From: a bacterium
Lineage (GTDB): Archaea > Nanobdellota > Nanobdellia > Pacearchaeales > GW2011-AR1
Assembly: GCA_036833455.1 (NCBI GenBank)
Contig: DAITPU010000002.1
Location: forward strand, 16,812-80,811
DNA length: 64,000 nucleotides
Direction: 5' to 3'
The notes beneath the pieces are model-generated. The model was not told the origin of the DNA and did no database searches. It worked only from the letters and a program-made list of their open reading frames with translations. Both the position numbers and the translations under genes were made by a program. Each line of letters opens with the position of its first letter. Position 1 is the first letter of the stretch. Below are positions 3,792-64,000 of the stretch, piece after piece.

Positions 3792-4155
3792 TTAAGCAAC
3801 CCCCTATTTTTTCTATTTCAGCCTCTTCATGAGTTATTAAACCCTTATTTGTAGAAAGGATCATCGTTCCAGAATTTCTAGAAGGAAGATATCTTCTTCT
3901 GTATTTTTCTATTTGAGATTTATCACAACTAAATCTAGGTTTTATTGCCTTACAATCAATTAAATCCCCAATAGTTACTTCTAAAGATTTTTCTTTACTA
4001 TCTATTTTATATTTCTTTATAGCTCCCTTCTGTTTCATTATTTTTAAAACTTCTATCAATAAGTTCGAAATTATGTTAAATTTAACAATTTCTTTATTTG
4101 CTTTCTTAGCATTCCTTATCATGTTTAGTGCATCTGCAACAATATCGTGACTCAT
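3775..4155 (-). CDS. rps8: Ribosomal protein uS8
   Basis: MSHDIVADALNMIRNA... canonical S8 start; gene order. Confidence 0.85.
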   Translation of the reverse strand: MSHDIVADALNMIRNAKKANKEIVKFNIISNLLIEVLKIMKQKGAIKKYKIDSKEKSLEVTIGDLIDCKAIKPRFSCDKSQIEKYRRRYLPSRNSGTMILSTNKGLITHEEAEIEKIGGCLIAYFY

Positions 4156-20172: not shown

Positions 20173-23160
20173 TTATTTTGAACAAGGTGGAACGAACTTT
20201 TGAATAGAACGACTAGAAGTGTCTCCTACATAAACATTTCCAGAGGAATCAACAAAAAGACTTTGAGGGTTGCTTAATTGACCATCTCCTGTCCCTGAAG
20301 ATCCAATCTTATCTAAATAGTTTCCATTTGAATTAAATATTTGTACTCTCTTATTATTTAGATCCAGTACATAAACTTTCCCTTCTGAATCTAAAGCTAC
20401 TTTCTGCGGATTCTTTAATTGACCGTTTCCTACTCCATAAAATCCAAATTTCCTTAAGAAATTTCCATTTGAATCAAAAACTTGTATCCTATGGTTATTT
20501 GAATCAACTACATATAAATTTCCTATCGAGTCTGTAGCAAGACCTCTTGGATTATTTAATTGGCCGTCTCTAGATCCTCTTACTCCGAAACTTTTTATTA
20601 AATTTCCATTGGAGTCATATTTGTTTATCAAATTTTTATAATAATCTGAAGCATAAATATTTCCCGAAGCATCTATAGCTATTCCGCTTGGGGTTCCAAG
20701 TGAGAATTGTCCTTTTGCTCCTATAGTTGATATATAATTTCCATTTGAATCAAACTTTACAATGTTGTTATTTCCTGTATCTATAACATAAAGATTTCCT
20801 AATGAATCTGATGAAAAATCTATTGCAGCTCCTTTAAACTTTCCATTTTCGGTTCCATAAGATCCAAAACTTAAAAGATGATTTTTCTCTTTATCAAACT
20901 TTAAAATTTTGCTGTTACTTAGCATATAAAAATTTCCTAAAGAATCTATAAAAATTCCCATTGGAAAAAACTGTTCATTTAAGTTTGGAGAAGAAGTCCA
21001 CTTTGCTAAAAACTCGTAACCATTGTTTCCGCAATAATTAGGATCTCCTAAACTAAATCCAGTTATAACAGGAGGATTTATTATTGAAGGTTCTTGCTGA
21101 AAAAAAGAAAATTCTTGTATTCTTGTATTTCCTCTTTCTGCAACATAAACTCTATTTTCTGGACCTATTTCAACAGCAGACGGCATGTTGAATTTTCCAT
21201 CTTCTATTCCGTAAGAACCAAAACTTTTTAAGAAATTTCCATTTGAATCAAAAACTTGTATTCTGTTGTTGCTTGAATCTGCAATGTAAACTCTTCCATA
21301 TGAATCTAAAGAAATTCCCAAAGGAGAACTGAATTCTCCTTCTTCATAACCTTTAACTCCCCATTTAAGTAAATAATTTCCATTTGAATCAAATTTTTGA
21401 ACTCTATTATTGCTTGAATCCACTACATATAAATTATTATTTGCATCTATTGCTAATGTCCTGGCATAAATAAATTGTCCATCTCCAGAGCCTTTAGTTC
21501 CAAATTTAGAAATATATTTTCCATCTGGACCAAACTTTTGAACACGAAAGTCATTATCTAAAATATAAATATTCCCAAAATTATCTATTTCAATTCCCGA
21601 AGGATTTTTCAAATATCCTTCTCCAGAGCCTTTAGTTCCAATATTTCCTAAATAAACTCCCTCTGAATTGAACTTTACTATACGAGAATTATACTTATCT
21701 ACAACGTAAATATTATTTGAAAAATCTATTGCTAAATCAGATGCAAACTTAAATTGCCCATCTCCTGATCCAGAAGAACCAAAACTTATTAAAAAATTTC
21801 CATTTGAATCAAATTTCAAAACTTCGTCTTCCATACTTAAACTGTATATGTTTCCTGAAGAATCTATAACCATTGCTGAAGGCCCAAACATTTGAGATCC
21901 AGTTAATTTTTTATAAGGCCATTTTTTGACAAAAAAATATTCCAAACTAGAATTAGTCATATTAGTAGAATTTGTTACATTTGTAAAATTTGAATAATTT
22001 TGTTGTAACATTGAGCACGGAATTAAAAATTTCTTGATTAATTCATTTCCAGAATCTCCTACATAAACATTTCCTTGATTGTCTACTGCTACAGAATAAG
22101 GGTGGTTTGAAAACTGCTCATCATCTTCAGGGGATATTTTTTTAAGGTAGTTTCCATTTGAATCAAAAACTTGTATTCTGTTGTTGCTTGAATCTGCAAT
22201 GTAAACTCTTCCAGATGAATCTAAAGAAATTCCCCAAGGGTTATTGAACTGACCTTCTTCTGAACCAAGAGTTCCCCATTTAGTTAAATAATTTCCATTT
22301 GAATCAAATTTTTGAATTCTATGATTCCCAGTATCAACAACATAATAATTTCCTAAAGAATCTATTGCAATTCCTCTTGGAAAAGAAAAATATCCAGATA
22401 AAGATCCCCCTGTAAGAGCTTTAGAAGAAGATAAATAATTCCCTTCTAAATCAAATATTTGAATTCTATGATTATTTGTATCGGCAATATAAATTTTGTT
22501 TGAAGAATCTATTGCTATTCCTAAAGGAGATTTGAATTGTCCTTCTTTTACTCCTAACAAACCAAAATTTGAAACATACTCTCCTTTTGAATTATACTTA
22601 ACAATTCTATTGTTTCCTGTATCAACTACATAATAATTTCCTAATGAATCTAAAGCAAAATCCCTTGGGAATTTTAATTGCCCTTCTCCAGTTCCATAAG
22701 ACCCTATTGTTGTAAGATGTGCTCCTTCCGAATCAAATTTTATAATTTCATTGTTACTTAAAACATAGATATTCCCTAATGCATCTGTTTTTATTGAGAT
22801 AGGGAAGAAATTTCCATTTGAATTAGAAAGTTTGTCATATCCCCACTTTAATTTAAATTCATAATCTTCAGAAGAACTACATTCCGGATTTTGAATATAA
22901 CCTTCAGAATATACTATTTCATTTTTTTCTTCTATATTTCCTTCTTCAACTCTCTTTTGTTCTTCTATCCTCTTTTGTTCTTCTAATCGGGCTTGCTCTT
23001 TTTCAGCAACTTGTTTCATTAATAGACATTCAAAAAAACCTTTGCATTCTTTTTGTTCAGAAACTGCATAACCCGTTAATGAAGCTCCAATTATAAGAGA
23101 ACCAACTAAAAATAGAAACAGCACACTTAATGAAATGTAAAGATATGTTTTTCGTTTCAT
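20173..23160 (-). CDS. Giant (995 aa) membrane-anchored NHL-repeat surface protein
   Basis: N-terminal TM anchor, coiled-coil K/E/Q segment, then ~18 NHL-type repeats (GN.YV.D..N.RIQ.FDSNGN) forming probably three propellers. Confidence 0.65.
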   Translation of the reverse strand: MKRKTYLYISLSVLFLFLVGSLIIGASLTGYAVSEQKECKGFFECLLMKQVAEKEQARLEEQKRIEEQKRVEEGNIEEKNEIVYSEGYIQNPECSSSEDYEFKLKWGYDKLSNSNGNFFPISIKTDALGNIYVLSNNEIIKFDSEGAHLTTIGSYGTGEGQLKFPRDFALDSLGNYYVVDTGNNRIVKYNSKGEYVSNFGLLGVKEGQFKSPLGIAIDSSNKIYIADTNNHRIQIFDLEGNYLSSSKALTGGSLSGYFSFPRGIAIDSLGNYYVVDTGNHRIQKFDSNGNYLTKWGTLGSEEGQFNNPWGISLDSSGRVYIADSSNNRIQVFDSNGNYLKKISPEDDEQFSNHPYSVAVDNQGNVYVGDSGNELIKKFLIPCSMLQQNYSNFTNVTNSTNMTNSSLEYFFVKKWPYKKLTGSQMFGPSAMVIDSSGNIYSLSMEDEVLKFDSNGNFLISFGSSGSGDGQFKFASDLAIDFSNNIYVVDKYNSRIVKFNSEGVYLGNIGTKGSGEGYLKNPSGIEIDNFGNIYILDNDFRVQKFGPDGKYISKFGTKGSGDGQFIYARTLAIDANNNLYVVDSSNNRVQKFDSNGNYLLKWGVKGYEEGEFSSPLGISLDSYGRVYIADSSNNRIQVFDSNGNFLKSFGSYGIEDGKFNMPSAVEIGPENRVYVAERGNTRIQEFSFFQQEPSIINPPVITGFSLGDPNYCGNNGYEFLAKWTSSPNLNEQFFPMGIFIDSLGNFYMLSNSKILKFDKEKNHLLSFGSYGTENGKFKGAAIDFSSDSLGNLYVIDTGNNNIVKFDSNGNYISTIGAKGQFSLGTPSGIAIDASGNIYASDYYKNLINKYDSNGNLIKSFGVRGSRDGQLNNPRGLATDSIGNLYVVDSNNHRIQVFDSNGNFLRKFGFYGVGNGQLKNPQKVALDSEGKVYVLDLNNKRVQIFNSNGNYLDKIGSSGTGDGQLSNPQSLFVDSSGNVYVGDTSSRSIQKFVPPCSK

Positions 23161-55798: not shown

Positions 55799-55901
55799 TT
55801 CTTTTTTTTTTTCTTTTAAGAGTATGGTTGTTTTTTTGCAGTTCTTTTTGAAAAAAAATATCTTCAAATCTTTTTAGGGATAGGAAGATATTTTCGTAAT
55901 T

Positions 55902-56075
55902 TTTACTCCTTTCTTCTTTTTTGGAAAAGAGATTTGATCCCAATTCCTATGATTAGAAAAAAAGACACGATTCCTCCTACTGCTAGAAAGAATCCTTCCC
56001 ATTTTACTACCTTGATCACCCAATAAAGGAAAATCAAAATGGCAATGAGAATTAGGAAAAAGGTTAGTGTGCTCA
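55902..56075 (-). CDS. Small (57 aa) membrane protein, not in ORF track
   Basis: rc translation MSTLTFFLILIAILIFLYWVIKVVKWEGFFLAVGGIVSFFLIIGIGIKSLFQKRRKE. Confidence 0.25.
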
Positions 56076-56090
56076 TTGTTTTTGTTTTTT

Positions 56091-56477
56091 TTAGTTAAAG
56101 GTTTTCTTTCCCCAGAATTGTCCGAGAACTATTCCAAGAATAAGTGCTAAAAAGGAAACTAGGATGCTTCTGAAAATGATTCCTTCTTTTAGTCCCAATA
56201 ATATGAAAACTACCATACAGATTGCGGCCATGCTTATCCAAATATACCAAAAAAAGGCTATCAGGAATCCTTCCGTTCCAAGAGGATAATCTCTTTTTAG
56301 GATGAAGGCAATTATTCCTGCAAGAGATATTCCTGTAAGAATGTATGGCCAGACATTAGGATCCTTTGAGAGATCTTCTGTTCCCCCAAAAACATTTAAG
56401 GCAAAAAGTATGCCAAAAATAAATAATAAAGCAAGTTCTTTTTTCATAGTTGTGATTTTTGTTTTTTTGTTTGACAT
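56091..56477 (-). CDS. Small membrane protein, first gene downstream of repeat element copy A
   Basis: 128 aa, 3-4 TM; higher-GC codon usage than left part of window. Confidence 0.45.
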   Translation of the reverse strand: MSNKKTKITTMKKELALLFIFGILFALNVFGGTEDLSKDPNVWPYILTGISLAGIIAFILKRDYPLGTEGFLIAFFWYIWISMAAICMVVFILLGLKEGIIFRSILVSFLALILGIVLGQFWGKKTFN

Positions 56478-56487
56478 TAAAAAATAA

Positions 56488-56548
56488 ATAGCACTCGCAT
56501 CATAGCAGTGCTCTTACCAACTTCGCTTGTCGTTCTCAATTAAGAGTT
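56488..56548. repeat. Structured intergenic repeat element, copy A (~60 nt)
   Basis: ATAGCACTCGCATCATAGCAGTGCTCTTACCAACTTCGCTTGTCGTTCTCAATTAAGAGTT; near-identical to copies at 59405, 61482, 62924. Confidence 0.75.
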
Positions 56549-56558
56549 TGGAAATTCT

Positions 56559-58040
56559 TTATTCTATCTGGATAAACATTGTTTGTATTGATCCAGATGT
56601 AGCCGTTATAGGAGTTCCAGCCGGAACAAAGATGACTGCCACATAGCTTCCCGGAAGGGCAACATAATTCCCTCCGTACAGATTTGCTGCAGCATACATC
56701 TCTTGGGCCTTTGTAGTCAGGGCCGGAACACCGCCTAAGGGCAGTCCATTCCATTGGGGTACATCAAAAAGCCATAGGGCTTGTTGCAAATCCCACCAGG
56801 AGTACGACCCAAAATAATCCAGGTGATTATAAAGCCAATTTATTTTCTTCCACCTTTCTTCCCCCCGAGCGAACAGCGGCAACTTGTCTTGATACAGCGA
56901 TGAGTACACATCCATGTTATACGCCACTCCTATGTAAATTAAAGTGGAGTGATCGGCGCAATTGGAAGGATATACTCCATTTTGCAAAATATATCCCGTC
57001 GGTATATTGCTCAATGTTGCATCCACATACCCCCCCATTGTGGATGGTTGAGCAGTAATGGTGTATGTGCACGTGGAGGGCAAATTCATATACTCCGGGA
57101 TTATTACGTCCGGCGGAGTGGCAGGATCATAGCATCCTCCTAAAACAAAATCAACTACTCCGTCGTTTCCTTGAGGAATGTTGGATACATCGTTAAAGGA
57201 AAATTCTTTGAATAGGACATATCCGAACGTTGTTCCTGTCTTCACATAGATGAAGAGTTTAAAGATAAATTCCTCATTTTCATCTAGATAATCTCCATAA
57301 TTCACTGCTAGCTTTTCTCCCTGGACGGAATTCAGAAAAGTGTTCTGCAATACTCCGTTTCTCCACACCTCGACTTTAAATATCGCCGGTACATCGATAT
57401 ACGGTCCGGGGGAAAGACTCCAATTTGCTTGCTGAGAATATAAAGACCCCACGTATTCCGACTTATTTCTGATACAGAAATTTCCGAAAAACCACTGCTC
57501 GCGGATAACCACCTGGTTTAACTGGAAGTACACAAACCCGAAATTTGCGTGGGTTGCAGGATCATAACAAGCAACATCCATTTTGAGTTCATTTTTTTTG
57601 TCTGTGGATACTTGAAAAGTTTTTTCCAAAGGTGTCGTGACGTAGCCGGCAAACGCGCTTCCAATATGAGGTGTAGCAAATATTAAAACATCATCACCCA
57701 AATTATTTGGTGTGTTGTTGTTGTTATACACAAGGAATTCACTTATGAGGTGTGTTCCGGCAGGTAATTTTATTGAGGATGTGTATTTGTTCCCCCCTAC
57801 ATTAAAAATCGGAATCTCCTGAAAATTCCCCTGGTTTATTCTCAACCGGACATAATCCGCTCTCAAACCAGAGCAGATGACAGTATCGATCTTTGTGATT
57901 GGGCCAGATTTCTGAGAAAGGTTATTAGTTCTGTTCTCCACTTCAATTGAAACTTCAAAAAGTTCTGAAAGTGGAGTATCTTCCTTTTTGCATCCAAAAA
58001 GCAAAAGGAATGGAACAAGCAAAAAAAGTTTTGTTTTCAT
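56559..58040 (-). CDS. Lipoprotein with bacterial-type lipobox (LLLFGC), 493 aa, unknown function
   Basis: MKTKLFLLVPFLLLFGCKKED signal/lipobox; GC-richer codon usage; conserved start-proximal motif AAAAAACTTTTAACAC-ATG. Confidence 0.55.
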   Translation of the reverse strand: MKTKLFLLVPFLLLFGCKKEDTPLSELFEVSIEVENRTNNLSQKSGPITKIDTVICSGLRADYVRLRINQGNFQEIPIFNVGGNKYTSSIKLPAGTHLISEFLVYNNNNTPNNLGDDVLIFATPHIGSAFAGYVTTPLEKTFQVSTDKKNELKMDVACYDPATHANFGFVYFQLNQVVIREQWFFGNFCIRNKSEYVGSLYSQQANWSLSPGPYIDVPAIFKVEVWRNGVLQNTFLNSVQGEKLAVNYGDYLDENEEFIFKLFIYVKTGTTFGYVLFKEFSFNDVSNIPQGNDGVVDFVLGGCYDPATPPDVIIPEYMNLPSTCTYTITAQPSTMGGYVDATLSNIPTGYILQNGVYPSNCADHSTLIYIGVAYNMDVYSSLYQDKLPLFARGEERWKKINWLYNHLDYFGSYSWWDLQQALWLFDVPQWNGLPLGGVPALTTKAQEMYAAANLYGGNYVALPGSYVAVIFVPAGTPITATSGSIQTMFIQIE

Positions 58041-58182
58041 GTGTTAAAAGTTTTTTGTGAAAAGGATTAAAACTCTTCTGCAACATAGACTTAACTTACT
58101 AAATTCCGTCACAGTGGTTCCCTATTTTTTTATAGCGATTGGATTCAACGCTCACAATTTCTTCTCAATTAAGAGTAAAGAG

Positions 58183-58212
58183 GTTGGCGACGAGATTCGA
58201 ACTCGTACCTTT
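58183..58212 (-). other. tRNA 3'-half-like fragment (T-arm + acceptor 3' strand), no 5' half found
   Basis: rc GGUACGAG-UUCGAAU-CUCGU-CGCCAACC; upstream sequence does not fold into D/anticodon arms. Confidence 0.35.
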
Positions 58213-58304
58213 TCTTCTCTCCGTGCGTGGGATCTCTGCCGTAAAAAGAAAAACGCTAGGGAGGAAGAGAGAAGAAAACTTCTACTTAAAATACGCCAAC
58301 CATT

Positions 58305-58634
58305 TCAATCACATAAATTCACCCTGTTCTTTTCATCCTCTTCTTTCATTCTGGATATCCAGCCCGAAAGAGGAGAAAGTTCTGAATCTAAAACCATCTT
58401 ATGATCCGCACGATAAAGAATAATTCTGCCACATTTGCAGAATTTTATCCTGTCGTCGTACCAATCTGTTCTGGAATTTGCCTTTCTTCCAGACCGAACT
58501 AGGACTTTTAGTCCGTCCGGGTCGGAAACTTCATAGTATGTTTTTGATCCTTGGTTCTCAAAAACAAACCTTATTTTCCGAATTGAATACTTCATTGGAT
58601 CTCCAATCCTAACACACTCTTTTAAAATATTCAT
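58305..58634 (-). CDS. Hypothetical protein (island)
   Basis: 109-aa ORF, overlaps next gene start/stop (operon-like). Confidence 0.4.
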   Translation of the reverse strand: MNILKECVRIGDPMKYSIRKIRFVFENQGSKTYYEVSDPDGLKVLVRSGRKANSRTDWYDDRIKFCKCGRIILYRADHKMVLDSELSPLSGWISRMKEEDEKNRVNLCD

Positions 58635-58891
58635 TCTGCCCTCCTTTCCAGTTTGAAGTTAAAGATGTGTTGGCCTTCTTTCCGGCGTGAAGCCTTTTTG
58701 TCAAACTCCAGGGAGAAAGAGTCGGCCGGAAATATCTTGGAGAGTTCTTTCACAAGAGAGCTCTTTGAGCTCACTCTCTTAATGAAATTTCCTCTTTCTT
58801 CAAAAGGAACTATGCTCAAAGAGGACGACTCGGGGTGGAGCTGAAAAGATCCCTCTCTTTTTAGGAGGACGAATTCATTTTTCTTTCCCAT
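58631..58891 (-). CDS. Hypothetical protein (island)
   Basis: 86-aa ORF in tight tandem array. Confidence 0.4.
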   Translation of the reverse strand: MGKKNEFVLLKREGSFQLHPESSSLSIVPFEERGNFIKRVSSKSSLVKELSKIFPADSFSLEFDKKASRRKEGQHIFNFKLERRAE

Positions 58892-58902
58892 GATTTTAAT
58901 TT

Positions 58903-59214
58903 TTAGTTGATTGTAATAGCTGATTTGTTTAAAGGGGTTAAGAAATAAATTACTTTTCCGTCTTCCGACGAAAAGGAAGAAACTCTTCGCAATTTTTCCT
59001 CTAAAAGAAAAATTATTTCTTCTATTGCCTCGTTTGGATTTCCGTTCCTTTTAAGAGTGGTTTTTCCAAAGATAGAAGTTAAACTTTTCTTTATTTCCTC
59101 TTTAGAGAGAAAAATTCCTTGAGAAAGGATTGATATGAGATAGGCCATTTCTTCTTGATAAGGAGAAGATGGATGCCTTTCCTGTAAAAAAATTCTAAAA
59201 TTTTGCTTTTCCAT
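58903..59214 (-). CDS. Hypothetical protein (island)
   Basis: 103-aa ORF. Confidence 0.4.
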   Translation of the reverse strand: MEKQNFRIFLQERHPSSPYQEEMAYLISILSQGIFLSKEEIKKSLTSIFGKTTLKRNGNPNEAIEEIIFLLEEKLRRVSSFSSEDGKVIYFLTPLNKSAITIN

Positions 59215-59226
59215 AATTAATTTCGA

Positions 59227-59367
59227 TTAATCTTCCAAACAGCATTTTTTTCGGGCCCAGGCATTCCTTTTTTGAAGAGAAAGTATTGCTCTCCTATATT
59301 GAGCTGCCTCTTTTTTTTCGAGACATTTTTGGCGAAGGGCCTCAATTTTTTTTTGAATTTTTTTCAT
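59227..59367 (-). CDS. Small basic protein (46 aa) directly downstream of repeat copy B
   Basis: MKKIQKKIEALRQKCLEKKEAAQYRRAILSLQKRNAWARKKCCLED; start preceded by AAAAAACTTTTAACAC. Confidence 0.35.
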   Translation of the reverse strand: MKKIQKKIEALRQKCLEKKEAAQYRRAILSLQKRNAWARKKCCLED

Positions 59368-59404
59368 GTGTTAAAAGTTTTTTTGTTAAACATAAAATTA
59401 AAAA

Positions 59405-59464
59405 ATAGCACTCGCTCACAGCAGTGCTCTTACCAACTTCGCTTGTCGTTCTCAATTAAGAGTT
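59405..59464. repeat. Structured intergenic repeat element, copy B
   Basis: ATAGCACTCGCTCACAGCAGTGCTCTTACCAACTTCGCTTGTCGTTCTCAATTAAGAGTT; overlaps stop of 59452..59703. Confidence 0.75.
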
Positions 59465-59703
59465 GGCTGCATCTTAGATTGAATTATTATAAGATTCCTC
59501 TTGAACCTCTTGCGATTAAAGGTCCAGAGAAAACTTTCAAACAAGAAGTGCATTGCTGCAAATCCATAATGGGCGATTCCGGTTAGGAAAATTACGAGAA
59601 AGAAAGTTAAAAAATTAGCTCTCTTCTCTTTCAAACCTTTCCAGGTTCTTCTCCAGAAAATCTTTTCTTTCTGAAGGACAATTTTGAGCAGGCTTGTCTT
59701 CAT
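59452..59703 (-). CDS. Small membrane protein (island)
   Basis: 83 aa, one TM. Confidence 0.4.
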   Translation of the reverse strand: MKTSLLKIVLQKEKIFWRRTWKGLKEKRANFLTFFLVIFLTGIAHYGFAAMHFLFESFLWTFNRKRFKRNLIIIQSKMQPTLN

Positions 59704-60290
59704 GATTTTTTCCTCCTCATGTTCTGGACAATAGCAAAATGAACTGAATCTTTTGGAAGATGCAGATTATATTTCTTATTGATCTTTGGCATTCCTAATG
59801 TTGAACACCAAATGTTTGGAGCTTTCACTGCCTCTTCCTTTGTTATTTCATAATACGGAAGGGGTGAATGAATCTCGGTCACAATAGTTTTTCTGTCTAC
59901 CTCTGAAGAGGAGTCCAGCTTCAAGGAATTACTATCTCTTTCAAAGAAATGGATATTTATCTCTTCATAAGAGAAAGAAAGAGTGCCTCCTTTTGTTCGA
60001 ATTAGAATATTGCTATCCTCTCTCAATAGAGCAAAGTGAGGTGTGACACGGACCATACTATCATTTACCTGAACTGAATCCCCCTCGACAGGCGATAAAA
60101 TTCTTGTTCTCATAATAACTGTCTCTCGCTCTGCGGATTTTGCTCCAACTGCATTTAAGACTGCCATCGGAACGAATGCTATGCCTGCAGCAAGAAGAAT
60201 GATAGTAAACTTCTTCTGGTATGCCCTTTTTCCGAACACCATCGCAATCACGATGATTGCAATTAAGGTGGAAACTAGATATGTTGCCAT
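59700..60290 (-). CDS. Membrane-anchored hypothetical protein (island)
   Basis: 196 aa, two N-terminal TMs. Confidence 0.45.
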   Translation of the reverse strand: MATYLVSTLIAIIVIAMVFGKRAYQKKFTIILLAAGIAFVPMAVLNAVGAKSAERETVIMRTRILSPVEGDSVQVNDSMVRVTPHFALLREDSNILIRTKGGTLSFSYEEINIHFFERDSNSLKLDSSSEVDRKTIVTEIHSPLPYYEITKEEAVKAPNIWCSTLGMPKINKKYNLHLPKDSVHFAIVQNMRRKKS

Positions 60291-60302
60291 TTTTCTTCCT
60301 CC

Positions 60303-61442
60303 TTATTTATCTTGTTTCCACTCTATTCCGGGGCAGTAATCTGTGTAAGCACTTCCAAAATATTCTCCGAATATTCCTAGAAATCCCAGGAAACCCTTCC
60401 AAAAGATTTCGCATCCATTTGCGATAAGACCCACGCAAAGAATATTCCAGAAGAAACTTACGGCCAAAATCTTAACAAAGAACCCATAGATTAACCATTC
60501 CCATAATAGTTTGACCAGAAGATAATAAAAGGGAGTTATAAATATTCCCTTAAGCAATTTCCCATACCAGGATTCTGGGTTAAAAGAATAATATATGCCT
60601 CTGAAAAGTAGGAAAATTAGATAACCCGCGGTTAAAAACGCCGCAATAAGGCCAAATACTTCTCCAAAAACGATTAAGAAACGAATTATTTCTTGACCAT
60701 CCCAGATATAAACTATCCAGGTAATTCCTCTTGTGAGAAAAGTTAACACAAAATAGAGCCCAACAAAAAGGATTGTTGAAACGATGAATCCCGTCACTCT
60801 TTTGGTCCATTTAATGAGCTTGGCCTGTCGACGAATCTTATCTGCTGCAGAATTGCGTGCAGCGGATATCTTTTCTCCAAATTCTTCGAAGATAGGTCTA
60901 AATTGTTTCCTGGGCTTGGGAGGATTTTTCTTCGATATTTCTTCGAGCCTCTTGTTTCTTTTTTCAATCAGTTCGTTTCGTAGAATTATCCAATGTTTTC
61001 CTTTTTTCTCTGCCTCTTTTTTAAGCCAAGAATACATTTTTGAATCCTGCTCGAAAGTTATCCTTCCTCCAAAAATCTCTTTTTGACAAGGTCCTCCTTT
61101 TTCACACCAAGCATCAAATTCTCTCCAAAAGAATTCTCTTTCTTCCCTCATCTGCCTGTCCCATTTTTCATACATTGGTTCCATGAGGTATTTTTCCTGA
61201 AGGAGGAGGAGGTAATTGAAAAATTTTGCGAATAACTTCAGAATGTTCCAAAGAAGAAGAAGAATTAGTTTCACCGGCCCCCATGTAAAGAAAAGGAGTC
61301 CAGATAGGATAGTTAACCAGAAGTAGGGACAAAGATTCCGCATTGTCTCTGGATCTGGAGCCAGATTTCCCAGAATAAACTGGTTCATTCTGTAATGCCA
61401 AGACTTTGTGCTTAGCGTGATTAAATTTATGTGTTCTTCCAT
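60303..61442 (-). CDS. Polytopic membrane protein (island), 379 aa
   Basis: multiple TMs with W/F-rich helices; preceded by repeat copy C. Confidence 0.45.
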   Translation of the reverse strand: MEEHINLITLSTKSWHYRMNQFILGNLAPDPETMRNLCPYFWLTILSGLLFFTWGPVKLILLLLWNILKLFAKFFNYLLLLQEKYLMEPMYEKWDRQMREEREFFWREFDAWCEKGGPCQKEIFGGRITFEQDSKMYSWLKKEAEKKGKHWIILRNELIEKRNKRLEEISKKNPPKPRKQFRPIFEEFGEKISAARNSAADKIRRQAKLIKWTKRVTGFIVSTILFVGLYFVLTFLTRGITWIVYIWDGQEIIRFLIVFGEVFGLIAAFLTAGYLIFLLFRGIYYSFNPESWYGKLLKGIFITPFYYLLVKLLWEWLIYGFFVKILAVSFFWNILCVGLIANGCEIFWKGFLGFLGIFGEYFGSAYTDYCPGIEWKQDK

Positions 61443-61481
61443 GATTGAAAAAGTTTTTTTGTTGATACTAAGTTAATAAAA

Positions 61482-61541
61482 ATAGCACTCGCTCACAGCA
61501 GTGCTCTTACCAACTTCGCTTGTCGTTCTCAATTAAGAGTT
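61482..61541. repeat. Structured intergenic repeat element, copy C
   Basis: ATAGCACTCGCTCACAGCAGTGCTCTTACCAACTTCGCTTGTCGTTCTCAATTAAGAGTT, identical to copy B; overlaps stop of 61533..62006. Confidence 0.75.
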
Positions 61542-62006
61542 GGGGATTTTTTTCTTTCTTTTGAACTCAAAAAGAAGTCCAAGAGAAATTCCTAATATTG
61601 TGAAAAAAGGGATAATCCATTTCCACAACGCAAACGATGGATCAAAATCTGGAAGTTCGTGGAGGGCAGATGTATTTTGAAATGCCGGAATTAGGAATCC
61701 CGGAATAAATCCAAGGAAAAAAAAACTTCCGCTCCAAGAGAGATAGCCCCCTTCTACTTTTACTCTTTTGAAAAAGAGGATTAGAAAGAAGTGGAATATT
61801 ATTCCTATCCCACAACCAACTAAAAGGTAAGGTAGAAATCTAAAATTGGGAACTTCTTCCCAAGGGAAGAGAAGTTTCCAGTTTCCTAATTCTATTCCTG
61901 CTCTTCGAATTAAAAGGTTGAAGGCTAGTGCGCTCCAAAGGAGGCACATGATGGCGATTAAAGAACGAAACTTTGTTTCGTTCAAAAATAGAATCATCCT
62001 TTTCAT
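61533..62006 (-). CDS. Membrane protein (island)
   Basis: 157 aa, 4 TM. Confidence 0.45.
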   Translation of the reverse strand: MKRMILFLNETKFRSLIAIMCLLWSALAFNLLIRRAGIELGNWKLLFPWEEVPNFRFLPYLLVGCGIGIIFHFFLILFFKRVKVEGGYLSWSGSFFFLGFIPGFLIPAFQNTSALHELPDFDPSFALWKWIIPFFTILGISLGLLFEFKRKKKIPNS

Positions 62007-62443
62007 TTTTCCTCCTTTCTTATTTGGATTACTTCCAACATAACTCCTAGAATAGAAAAACAGATTCCTCCGAACCCCAGGAGATAGGAAGTTCCTACTT
62101 TTGCGTTATGGAGAAACTTTGAAAAATGGGTTAAGGAATCTTCAGGATTCACTTCCCATCTGTATTCAAGGTTCATTAAAAGGAACAGAAGATAAATCCC
62201 CAAGATAAATAGGAGATACTTGTATCCTTTTAAGAATGTATACCCCATTCCCTTTCTATTGTAAGGGAGAATCTCCCGCTTGAAGAGGAGCCAGAAGAGC
62301 ACAGTAAAAATGTTCAGGGAAAGGGCAAATCCCCCTGTGCTTAGAAGTCCACGTTCCATTCTTAGGAAAAAAATCATTCCTACGAAAGAAATAATTACTC
62401 CTAGAAGGAGAAAAATTTCGGTTAAATTCTTTTTTGTTTTCAT
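62003..62443 (-). CDS. Membrane protein (island)
   Basis: 146 aa, 4 TM; start preceded by AAAAAACTTTTAACAC. Confidence 0.45.
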   Translation of the reverse strand: MKTKKNLTEIFLLLGVIISFVGMIFFLRMERGLLSTGGFALSLNIFTVLFWLLFKREILPYNRKGMGYTFLKGYKYLLFILGIYLLFLLMNLEYRWEVNPEDSLTHFSKFLHNAKVGTSYLLGFGGICFSILGVMLEVIQIRKEEK

Positions 62444-62465
62444 GTGTTAAAAGTTTTTTTGTTTG

Positions 62466-62882
62466 CTAAATTTTTTCTTTTAAGAAAAGTCTCCTTATGG
62501 GAGGGATCTTTTCAAGGATCCAACTTCCTCCCCAGATAAGGATAAAGACAATTAGTAAGTCCTTCAAAAAGGTAGGGTCCTTGAACATGTAATATGTCCA
62601 GACCATCATTAGAATGGTCATTATTAATAGTGTCAAGAAAAAAATATTTTTTACTTTTCTGTAATTTTCTTTCTCTCTTGACATTGCCCGGACTAGTATT
62701 CCCATTCCAAATAAAAAGATCACAAGTGGGGCTCCTGAAATGCGATAGATATCTCTTTTGGAAAATCCCTCTTGTTCTGCTGCAGAGTCAAATTCCGAAA
62801 ACTTTATTTGCTTTCTGCTCATAGCTTCCGTCGAGCAAGAAAACAAAATTAATGAAATTAAAAAGACAAATAATTTTTTCAT
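62466..62882 (-). CDS. Lipoprotein/membrane protein with lipobox LFSC
   Basis: MKKLFVFLISLILFSCSTEA then 2 TM; start preceded by conserved motif and truncated repeat copy D. Confidence 0.5.
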   Translation of the reverse strand: MKKLFVFLISLILFSCSTEAMSRKQIKFSEFDSAAEQEGFSKRDIYRISGAPLVIFLFGMGILVRAMSREKENYRKVKNIFFLTLLIMTILMMVWTYYMFKDPTFLKDLLIVFILIWGGSWILEKIPPIRRLFLKEKI

Positions 62883-62923
62883 GTGTTAAAAGTTTTTTTT
62901 GTTTAACATAAAATTAAAATAAA

Positions 62924-62959
62924 TAACACTCGCTCACAGCAGTGCTCTTACCAACTTCT
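62924..62959. repeat. Structured intergenic repeat element, copy D (truncated)
   Basis: ATAACACTCGCTCACAGCAGTGCTCTTACCAACTTC then abuts stop of 62968..63747. Confidence 0.65.
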
Positions 62960-62967
62960 TAAAAAAA

Positions 62968-63747
62968 TTATTTCAATTTGAGGATTTGACCCACCCTCAA
63001 TTTGTTCGGATTATCAAGACTATTCAAAACCTGGATTTCCCTCCAGGAAAGCCCGTATTTTTGGGCTATACTTCCCAGAGTTTCTCCTGATTTTACGATG
63101 TGGGAAGTGGGAATCTCTGAGGGGGCAGAGGGGACAGGTGAATCCGACGAAGAAGGCTGTACCTTCCGCTTTGAATAGAGACGGGTATTAGCTATCCAAA
63201 CTCCATCTTGTCCCTCTTTTGATTGGACAAATAAGTTGAGAGTGTAGTTATCATACACCTCATCGAACTTTCCCTGTTCAAAGAGATAAACAAAAATTCC
63301 TCTTTGGAACACAAGGAAATTTCTTTTTCCCAATTTTATTGGGAAGGTGTGATTTCCCGCACTTTCACGGTAATCTCTGTTCTTTAGAGTTTTGATCTCT
63401 TTCTCTTTGTCGAACAGAGGGGAAACTTTTGTGTTTCTTGCGATCAATACTCGTTCGTTTGTTTTTTCAAAAAAGAACATTCTATCCTCGTCCCAAATCA
63501 TCTTCCCTTTTTTCTTCCCTTCTTTGAGAGTAAGGGTAAAACGTTTATTGATCCCCCAGATTTGATCTTCTTCAAACTGGAGAATAAAATCTCCCTGTCC
63601 GTCAAGGTGGATAACATCATATTCCCCCAAAGGAGCTTCTTTAGAAATTCCTCTTTCGATCTTGGAAGTGTTTTCCAACTTCTGGGGGGAGGAGCAACTG
63701 GCGATCATAAAAAAGATCGCGATGGAACAAATTTGTTGTGTTTTCAT
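62968..63747 (-). CDS. Lipoprotein with C-terminal LysM domain
   Basis: MKTQQICSIAIFFMIASCSS lipobox; C-terminal VKSGETLGSIAQKYGLSWREIQVLNSL...LRVGQILKL LysM signature. Confidence 0.6.
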   Translation of the reverse strand: MKTQQICSIAIFFMIASCSSPQKLENTSKIERGISKEAPLGEYDVIHLDGQGDFILQFEEDQIWGINKRFTLTLKEGKKKGKMIWDEDRMFFFEKTNERVLIARNTKVSPLFDKEKEIKTLKNRDYRESAGNHTFPIKLGKRNFLVFQRGIFVYLFEQGKFDEVYDNYTLNLFVQSKEGQDGVWIANTRLYSKRKVQPSSSDSPVPSAPSEIPTSHIVKSGETLGSIAQKYGLSWREIQVLNSLDNPNKLRVGQILKLK

Positions 63748-64000
63748 GGTTGAAAAGTGATTTGGGTTTTGTGAAAAAATTTATTGAATTTCAAGGTTAT
63801 TTCAAGGTATTTCACTTGAAAAATATATTATCGTCTAGCTTATGCTTGACTGTTATTTCTTTCCTAAAAGGTATTTCGCTTCGGAATTTTCATTTCGAAG
63901 GTTTTTCACTTAATCTCTTTGTCGAGTTTAAGTTTTTTCAGTTATTTTCTTTTTCGAAATCAACTTTTTTAGATATTTCAAATACGAATCTTGTTAAAGA

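Follow-up and report, generated by a model that had tools for sequence, protein, structure and literature searches.

Promoter-early stem-loop (PeSL) cassettes are regulatory elements of T4-type phages (Arbiol et al. 2010, PMC2839356; Comeau et al. 2014, PMC4122927). Each is an intergenic composite of a stem-loop terminator and a promoter, bounded by the stop codon of one gene and the start codon of its successor, and many repeats of it lie in a variable region of small unknown genes, where genes are inserted or replaced one by one between close relatives. Integrons, attC sites and integrase-less attC clusters (CALIN arrays) have been reported in Archaea, DPANN lineages included (Ghaly et al. 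2022, PMC9668308). Here we describe a 66-nt element that recurs in a higher-GC (guanine plus cytosine) island of an archaeal chromosome, at the end of a 64,000-nt stretch of DNA, which as a whole we call the window and which is part of a 161-kb contig (NODE_25 of ENA ERZ724101). The reading that we favour, at a probability of roughly 0.5, is that this element forms the terminator part of a composite junction module, terminator plus promoter, which separates transcription units in a surface-protein island acquired horizontally. The closest described system would be PeSL, as a functional resemblance and not as membership.

Repeat finding over 54-64 kb and over the whole window recovered one repeat family on the minus strand, with four main copies (c1-c4) and a degenerate fifth (c5). 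The program returned spans of 66 nt each, at 56485-56550 (c1), 59401-59466 (c2), 61478-61543 (c3) and 62919-62984 (c4), the homology of c4 being confined to its 3' 40 nt (62919-62958). An earlier note on this DNA had listed four near-identical copies, one of them truncated, and our data bear this out, with none expected by chance in shuffled sequence; a pattern search with the 34-nt core gave three matches at ≤1 mismatch against 0.00 expected (100 shuffles). Copies c2 and c3 are 100% identical across the 66 nt (CCAAC...GCTATTTTT), and this identity stops sharply on both sides, the flanks outside the block being different. In c1, CCAAC is changed to CAAAC and the hairpin apex carries G>A and a 1-nt insertion; c4 has a single C>T, by which one G-C pair becomes G-U. 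The 5' 15-mer of the element, ACTCTTAATTGAGAA, is found again at 58162-58176, followed by TGTGAGCG and GCTAT. This degenerate copy (c5, ~58128-58176) has neither the terminator hairpin nor the T-run, and corresponds to a deletion-derivative that the earlier note had placed near 58149-58176. Repeat finding, pattern search and a 15-mer search detected no copy in the remaining 56 kb of the window, in agreement with the note's claim that nothing comparable occurs there, and the five copies seen within the 64 kb plus ~8 kb of flank all lie in the island in one orientation. Other assemblies (L003, L005, L006, L071 and L072) have the repeats too, with contigs that break within them. The family is genuine, secure on statistical grounds and private to the lineage.

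All five copies stand at the 3' ends of units. Copy c1 lies 3' of the p493 lipoprotein gene, whose stop codon is 8 nt ahead of the start of the copy (12 nt ahead of the 15-mer), and c4 lies 3' of the LysM lipoprotein gene, whose stop is 9 nt ahead of the retained part. At c2 and c3 the element itself gives the stop codon, in different frames: the TGA of an 83-aa open reading frame (ORF) is inside the 5' end of c2 and the TAA of p157 inside that of c3. An overlap with the upstream stop codon, which had been claimed for every copy, holds for only two of the four. Inspection of the 5' segment of the element found stops in all three frames.

The sole structure in all of c1-c4 is the 3' hairpin, a 9-bp GC-containing stem with one bulge and a 3-nt loop that is predicted to fold by itself at -8 to -10.9 kcal/mol (z -1.7 to -3.9). 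It occupies 56490-56512 in c1, 59407-59428 in c2, 61484-61505 in c3 and 62925-62946 in c4. An A and a T-tract follow it in c2 (T6) and c3 (T5), and interrupted T-runs in c1 (56479-56489) and c4. A GC-containing stem-loop with a U-tract at once behind it and a gene just ahead of it is what an intrinsic terminator would look like. The earlier note had described two hairpins and a U-run, of which the 3' hairpin and the run stand. The first hairpin is not established: CUCUUA/UAAGAG and AGCACU/AGUGCU overlap by 2 nt and cannot both form completely, for c2 and c3 RNAfold chooses the 3' hairpin together with CCAACU/AGUUGG and it folds c1 and c4 otherwise, and this first structure, ambiguous as it is, is weakened in c1 and lost in c4. 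In c1, c4 and the c4 of a sister strain (L068) the changes affect the loop or leave a G-U pair, so that the stem is preserved; the structure is compatible with the data, not demonstrated beyond sequence identity.

Alignment of the junctions revealed a constant order on the coding strand. A full junction consists of CCAAC, the 5' segment TCTTAATTGAGAACGACAAGCGAAGTTGGTAAG, the hairpin (AGCACUGCU-GUG-AGC(G)AGUGCU), A plus T5-6, an AT-rich stretch of variable length (15-20 nt), and AACAAAAAAACTTTTAACAC followed by ATG. An AT-rich, TATA-like box is centred ~27-33 nt upstream of that ATG. The leader AACAAAAAAACTTTTAACAC-ATG forms a second repeat family, with an exact 18-mer in four places, all on the minus strand. 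It is the downstream half of the c2 junction ahead of p46 (59365-59387) and of the c4 junction ahead of p138 (62880-62903), and it also precedes p493 (58038-58060) and p146 (62441-62463, in a 22-nt junction), whose upstream junctions have no intact 66-nt element. Diverged leaders are found ahead of LysM, p379 and a gene for a 118-aa membrane protein, the latter two with a diverged AT box as the downstream halves of the c3 (AACAAAAAAACTTTTTCAATC-ATG, 61440-61477, minus strand) and c1 junctions (AACAAAAAAACAAAAATCACAACT-ATG, 56445-56484, minus strand). The shared leader might serve as an initiator region or as an operator. A mechanically called 128-aa ORF begins at an ATG inside the c1 junction (window 56445-56477); the 118-aa start, chosen by the gene caller and with its ATG placed as at the other junctions, is more likely the better one. 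The island leader AAACTTTTAACACATG (58038-58055) also resembles the pre-start sequence AAACTTTTGACAAC[C/T]ATG of the two closest Bacteroidales p493 orthologs (L017:~1180-1200 and L018:~3940-3960), a likeness that the 83%-identical p493 ortholog does not share and that may reflect ancestry or chance.

Ribosome-binding sites of the GGAGG type are confined to the internal genes p157, p196, p83 and p109, and the first genes of units have no Shine-Dalgarno sequence ahead of them. On this distribution the island reads as about seven units, and not as the single operon that the earlier note had assumed. Where host genes have a gap upstream, TTTAAATA/TTTATAAA boxes stand ~26-33 nt before the ATG, and at the same distance the island junctions have TTTTATG, TTTTAATC or ATTTAGC. 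In archaea the first gene of a unit is commonly leaderless and internal genes are led by Shine-Dalgarno sequences; given boxes at the host distance and Shine-Dalgarno sequences at internal genes only, the island follows this pattern. Scanning for sigma-70 promoters gave sites no commoner than in shuffles, and none of quality in the modules.

We then asked where else the element occurs. Exact-match scans with the core returned nothing from IMG/VR or from 185,579 GTDB species genomes, and one match from the JGI metagenomes, a chance 21-mer inside a high-GC coding region (L001); the leader motif had no match in IMG/VR. Searching the whole island by blastn against phage and plasmid records gave no match, and none came from viral contigs in scans guided by the p379 protein and by the HerA-like ATPase encoded beside the island. 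Rfam, which the earlier note had proposed as a check, offered no relevant family: there was no hit at gathering score in the island, and at E≤10 only chance small nucleolar and long non-coding RNA hits. The element is absent from 61 loci with p493 homologs, including orthologs of 83% and 69% identity, and these loci have no repeat family of their own, so the element does not belong to the unit in which p493 is transferred. An ordinary hairpin-plus-T terminator fills the equivalent slot downstream of the 83% ortholog, which indicates that the element stands where a terminator belongs.

To follow the island between strains we compared the window with a sister strain recovered from other samples (L068/L069). 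Identity per 100-nt window is 98-100% across the transfer RNA gene tRNA-Leu, a 148-aa gene, the HerA-like gene and most of the region upstream of LysM, and two flank genes have a synonymous divergence (dS) of 0.02-0.04. At LysM this rises to dS 0.77, with a nonsynonymous divergence (dN) of 0.08; it falls to 0.17 in the c4 module, which the sister strain keeps, and p138, climbs to 0.70 (dN 0.24) in p146, and returns to near identity in p157. A dS this high rules out simple diversifying selection, and we therefore conclude that island genes were replaced by recombination. Four breakpoints were located, one in the LysM promoter region, one ~45 nt before the LysM stop and adjoining c4, and two in p146, just past the leader motif and first codons and ~30 nt before the stop. 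Neither this recombinational mosaicism, nor the leader motif before the ATG, nor a tRNA-like RNA described below had been noticed in the earlier note.

These data allow us to propose how the junctions might work. The hairpin and T-tract would end the transcript of the upstream unit, the AT box and leader would start a leaderless or near-leaderless transcript of the next, and the module would insulate the units from one another. A hairpin with a U-run is the bacterial intrinsic terminator signal, and for archaeal RNA polymerase an oligo-T tract is enough, so the upstream unit should end at the element either way. The recurring blocks of 66 nt and ~20 nt may further provide homology for recombination and gene conversion, by which modules would be kept near-identical and genes would become replaceable unit by unit. 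A terminator or insulator was among the options that the earlier note had left open, and it is the one that best fits the anatomy of a hairpin and T-run downstream of a gene and ahead of an AT box and leader. The 3' half of the element, with its 9-bp GC-containing stem, 3-nt loop and AUUUUU(U), resembles known intrinsic and oligo-T terminators; unlike the island element, ordinary terminators are not common to unrelated genes as identical 66-nt blocks and have no conserved 25-nt 5' extension.

The composite motif that defines PeSL is found here too, likewise in a variable region with small genes lacking a known function, although its promoter part is a resemblance to the position of host TATA boxes. 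On replacement bounded by motifs the picture is mixed: dS against L068 jumps from gene to gene (0.02, 0.77, 0.17, 0.70), with two of the four breakpoints at modules, next to c4 and at the leader motif, and two elsewhere. The two systems differ in that PeSL cassettes belong to phages and have sigma-70 -35/-10 boxes and a Shine-Dalgarno sequence, in which the stem-loop often lies inside the promoter, whereas the island is chromosomal and archaeal, has no convincing sigma-70 promoter, no Shine-Dalgarno sequence and no sequence similarity to PeSL, places the hairpin ahead of a T-tract and TATA-like box, and has starts that look leaderless.

Several observations weigh against the terminator-promoter module. 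Its putative roles in termination, promotion and the anchoring of recombination are all readings of the sequence, and the AT boxes of the island are weaker than the host TATA boxes. Folds of the whole element are not unusual (z -1.0 to -1.6), and the hairpins of c1-c4 were absent from the output of a generic terminator scan. Covariation, a further check suggested by the earlier note, gave stem-compatible changes but zero compensatory pairs, with one G-C>G-U and the other changes in the loop, in a set of five distinct sequences (the four window copies and the sister-strain c4) too alike to have power. The 25-nt 5' segment ACTCTTAATTGAGAACGACAAGCG is conserved in c1-c3 and is unexplained by a terminator role, the sharp-edged 66-nt identity of c2 and c3 would suit a small mobile element as well, and the other two of the four breakpoints lie away from the modules.

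That block of identity, with its sharp ends and differing flanks, is an argument for a small non-autonomous or selfish repeat, similar to repetitive extragenic palindromes (REP), Correia elements or miniature inverted-repeat transposable elements (MITEs), which would have spread into intergenic sites of the island or of a donor genome and whose terminator effect would be incidental. The truncated c4 and degenerate c5, and a conserved 5' segment with no evident terminator role, are consistent with such an origin, and REP sequences, bacterial interspersed mosaic elements (BIMEs) and Correia elements are also short, near-identical, hairpin-forming repeats at gene 3' ends that can act as terminators or messenger RNA stabilisers. 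We nevertheless regard it as unlikely. The ends of the element, CCAACTCTTAATTGAG and AGCGAGTGCTATTTTT, are not complementary, so the terminal inverted repeats of Correia elements are lacking, as are target-site duplications in the flanks (TA in Correia elements) and a transposase in the island. REP/BIME and Correia families number tens to hundreds of genome-wide copies in both orientations, whereas here five copies share one orientation, each at a unit end, with none in the other 56 kb and no exact core copy in the species genomes, JGI metagenomes or IMG/VR, nor a phage or plasmid match by blastn. The MITE-like option of the earlier note is weakened accordingly. A role at the RNA level, whether in stabilising a 3' untranslated region (3'-UTR), in marking a place for processing or in yielding a 3'-UTR-derived small RNA, overlaps the terminator reading in part rather than excluding it. 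A hairpin at an RNA 3' end is a classic shield against 3' exonucleases, as is established for REP/BIME, the 5' segment is conserved, and at the fifth junction a tRNA-like structure takes the same slot and is followed by the 5' 15-mer of the element, where cleavage by RNase P/Z might provide equivalent punctuation. With no covariation, no Rfam relative and a first hairpin that is ambiguous and lost in c4, we consider this quite unlikely as the explanation of the element.

Could the element instead be a site for site-specific recombination, attC-like or Xer/dif-like, and the island a cassette array that captures foreign genes? The setting invites the comparison. Short, unrelated genes of foreign, cross-domain affinity lie on one strand as a same-orientation array, separated by spacers of ~60 nt that are near-identical and more alike within the genome than to anything outside, genes are replaced singly between strains, and the inverted pair CCAAC...GTTGG resembles R''/R' core sites. 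Nor does a CALIN need IntI. An attC site, however, is ~57-141 nt long and folds into one long imperfect hairpin with R''/R' and L''/L' pairing and extrahelical bases, whereas DNA folds of both strands of c2 and c3 gave two separate short hairpins and no valid R''-L''...L'-R' layout. CCAAC and GTTGG are 22 nt apart with a mostly unpaired interior (34 nt in all); the RYYYAAC candidates AGCCAAC, CCCCAAC and TCCAAAC have one or two mismatches each, and GTTGGTA has two against GTTRRRY (by eye). Copy c4 is without the left, R''-like half. There is no IntI and no recombinase in or beside the island, the nearest, at a distance of ~6-7 kb, being an Xer-type tyrosine recombinase of 278 aa within a cluster of host genes. 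The units, moreover, have their own promoter-like leaders and terminators and up to four genes each, and the breakpoints are imprecise at the element. We judge a recombination site, conceivably one of a new type, to be very improbable. A broader proposal would make the junction modules the working parts of a hitherto undescribed gene-capture platform in a small-genome archaeon, at a single locus that adjoins tRNA-Leu and the gene for a HerA/Ced-like DNA-translocating ATPase. Such a platform would work across domains and be functionally analogous to integrons and PeSLs. Foreign genes such as p493 would each be fitted with a standard terminator and leaderless promoter, and the identical modules would serve as recombination sites for the capture, excision and exchange of units between strains. 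This we regard as a long shot.

Two further identities were rejected. A template or variable repeat of a diversity-generating retroelement is contradicted on inspection by the lack of a reverse transcriptase and of adenine-specific differences, and a C/D-box small RNA by the lack of a box C/D pattern, the sole Rfam hint being an 18-bit match on the opposite strand.

Between p109 and p493 the slot held elsewhere by the 66-nt element is occupied by a tRNA-like structured RNA (58180-58301, minus strand), and c5 lies directly 3' of it. This RNA has an 8-bp acceptor stem (GGTTGGCG/CGCCAACC), and a canonical T-arm (ACGAG-TTCGAAT-CTCGT), which enclose a hairpin of 12-13 bp, with a predicted fold of -40 kcal/mol (z -3.0). 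ARAGORN called a weak tRNA-Leu(GAG) with a 48-nt 'intron', solely when introns were allowed, and the Rfam tRNA model made no call. Another organism has the central hairpin conserved ahead of its 83% p493 ortholog (L007:1676-1760), with UUUU/AAAA at the stem base replaced by CCC/GGG, a compensatory exchange. The RNA may be a conserved small RNA or a leader that travels with p493. We also considered whether the 66-nt element is a duplicated 3' end of the tRNA-like RNA, as in serial attachment (att) sites, and rejected this: only CCAAC(C)TCTT is common to both, and copies flank both sides.

The island spans 55900-64000 and continues ~100 nt past the window end, holding ~14 genes in ~7 units on the minus strand over 8 kb. 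Its GC content is 38% against 28% (ranges 34-41% against 25-33% elsewhere), and at third codon positions 0.27-0.51 against 0.16-0.20. The gene order is S13-S4-S11-rpoD-[island]-tRNA-Leu(CAA)-L18e-L13-S9, with Rpb4, L21e, RpoN and STT3 close by, and the surroundings are an archaeal core cluster. We rejected a chimeric assembly, as both island junctions recur in independent assemblies: L005 and L006 have the left one, from rpoD through the 118-aa gene to c1, and L068 and L069 the right one, with LysM joined to the HerA-like ATPase across the intergenic region. Given this recurrence, and given that contigs of other samples (L003, L071 and L072) stop inside the repeats, the island is a real insertion and the repeats are truly multi-copy.

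Lipoproteins and membrane proteins make up most of the island: three of its proteins are lipobox lipoproteins (p259, with a C-terminal LysM domain, p138 and p493), several are multi-pass membrane proteins (p146, p157, p379, p196 and p128/118), and four are small and soluble; LysM aside, Pfam, NCBIfam and PHROG gave no assignments of substance for them. The p493 gene (56559-58040, minus strand) has 149 relatives (among them L007, L009-L016 and L017-L067), which in species-representative genomes are almost all from Bacteroidales/Bacteroidota, at ≤52% identity. Its predicted model is a chain of Ig-like beta-sandwich domains, for which the best PDB match is a Bacteroides surface protein. The closest relatives (83% and 69%) form isolated patches of higher GC on contigs that are unrelated and low in GC, one of them with sigma-70-type promoters; the dS of these relatives against the window copy is ~0.8. 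The p493 gene seems to pass between small-genome organisms of very different kinds. At the loci of its relatives it has none of the other island genes beside it, which argues that the island is an assemblage of genes with separate histories and not a block from one donor locus.

Some features of the neighbourhood deserve mention. Between the island and tRNA-Leu(CAA), at host-like GC and just past the end of the window, are genes for a 148-aa coiled-coil protein and a 656-aa HerA/DUF87 ATPase (L002:1554-3972); the ATPase resembles, at scores below threshold, the NCBIfam model 'DNA-translocating ATPase CedD' (E 9e-18) and a PHROG terminase family, and may be a mobile-element remnant or a DNA-uptake component beside the island. 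A 320-nt intergenic region upstream of LysM (window ~63780-64000 and on; L002:4030-4260) contains five or six GAAATAnCTT-type motifs, with the variants GTGAAAAACCTTCGAAAT, GCGAAATACCTTTTAGG and GTGAAATACCTTGAAATAACCTTGAAAT, and is kept near-perfectly in the sister strain up to the divergence of the LysM cassette; the motifs could be iterons or operator sites. The 278-aa Xer-type recombinase lies ~2.6 kb past rps9, in a cluster with a 140-aa PF07508 'Recombinase' fragment and genes for a HAD hydrolase and a ZIP transporter (L070:2701-4703), and the two recombinases are probably the host Xer and a serine-recombinase remnant. Elsewhere in the window, a host gene at 20200-22700 has up to nine copies of diverged 141-nt (47 aa) coding repeats (60-85% identity), which indicates a repeat-domain protein.

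The repeats break short-read assemblies, as seen in the contigs of three other datasets that end inside them, and islands of this kind will consequently be under-represented in genome bins. The locus is a compact natural case of modular surface-protein gene exchange in an uncultivated small-genome archaeon, and its repeats are the obvious candidate exchange points. If the modules do stop and restart transcription, they would show how foreign genes, partly of bacterial affinity, are made expressible in an archaeal genome: each unit would bring a standard 3' stop and start region into the midst of a core cluster of ribosomal-protein and RNA-polymerase genes, and the cluster would be left undisturbed.

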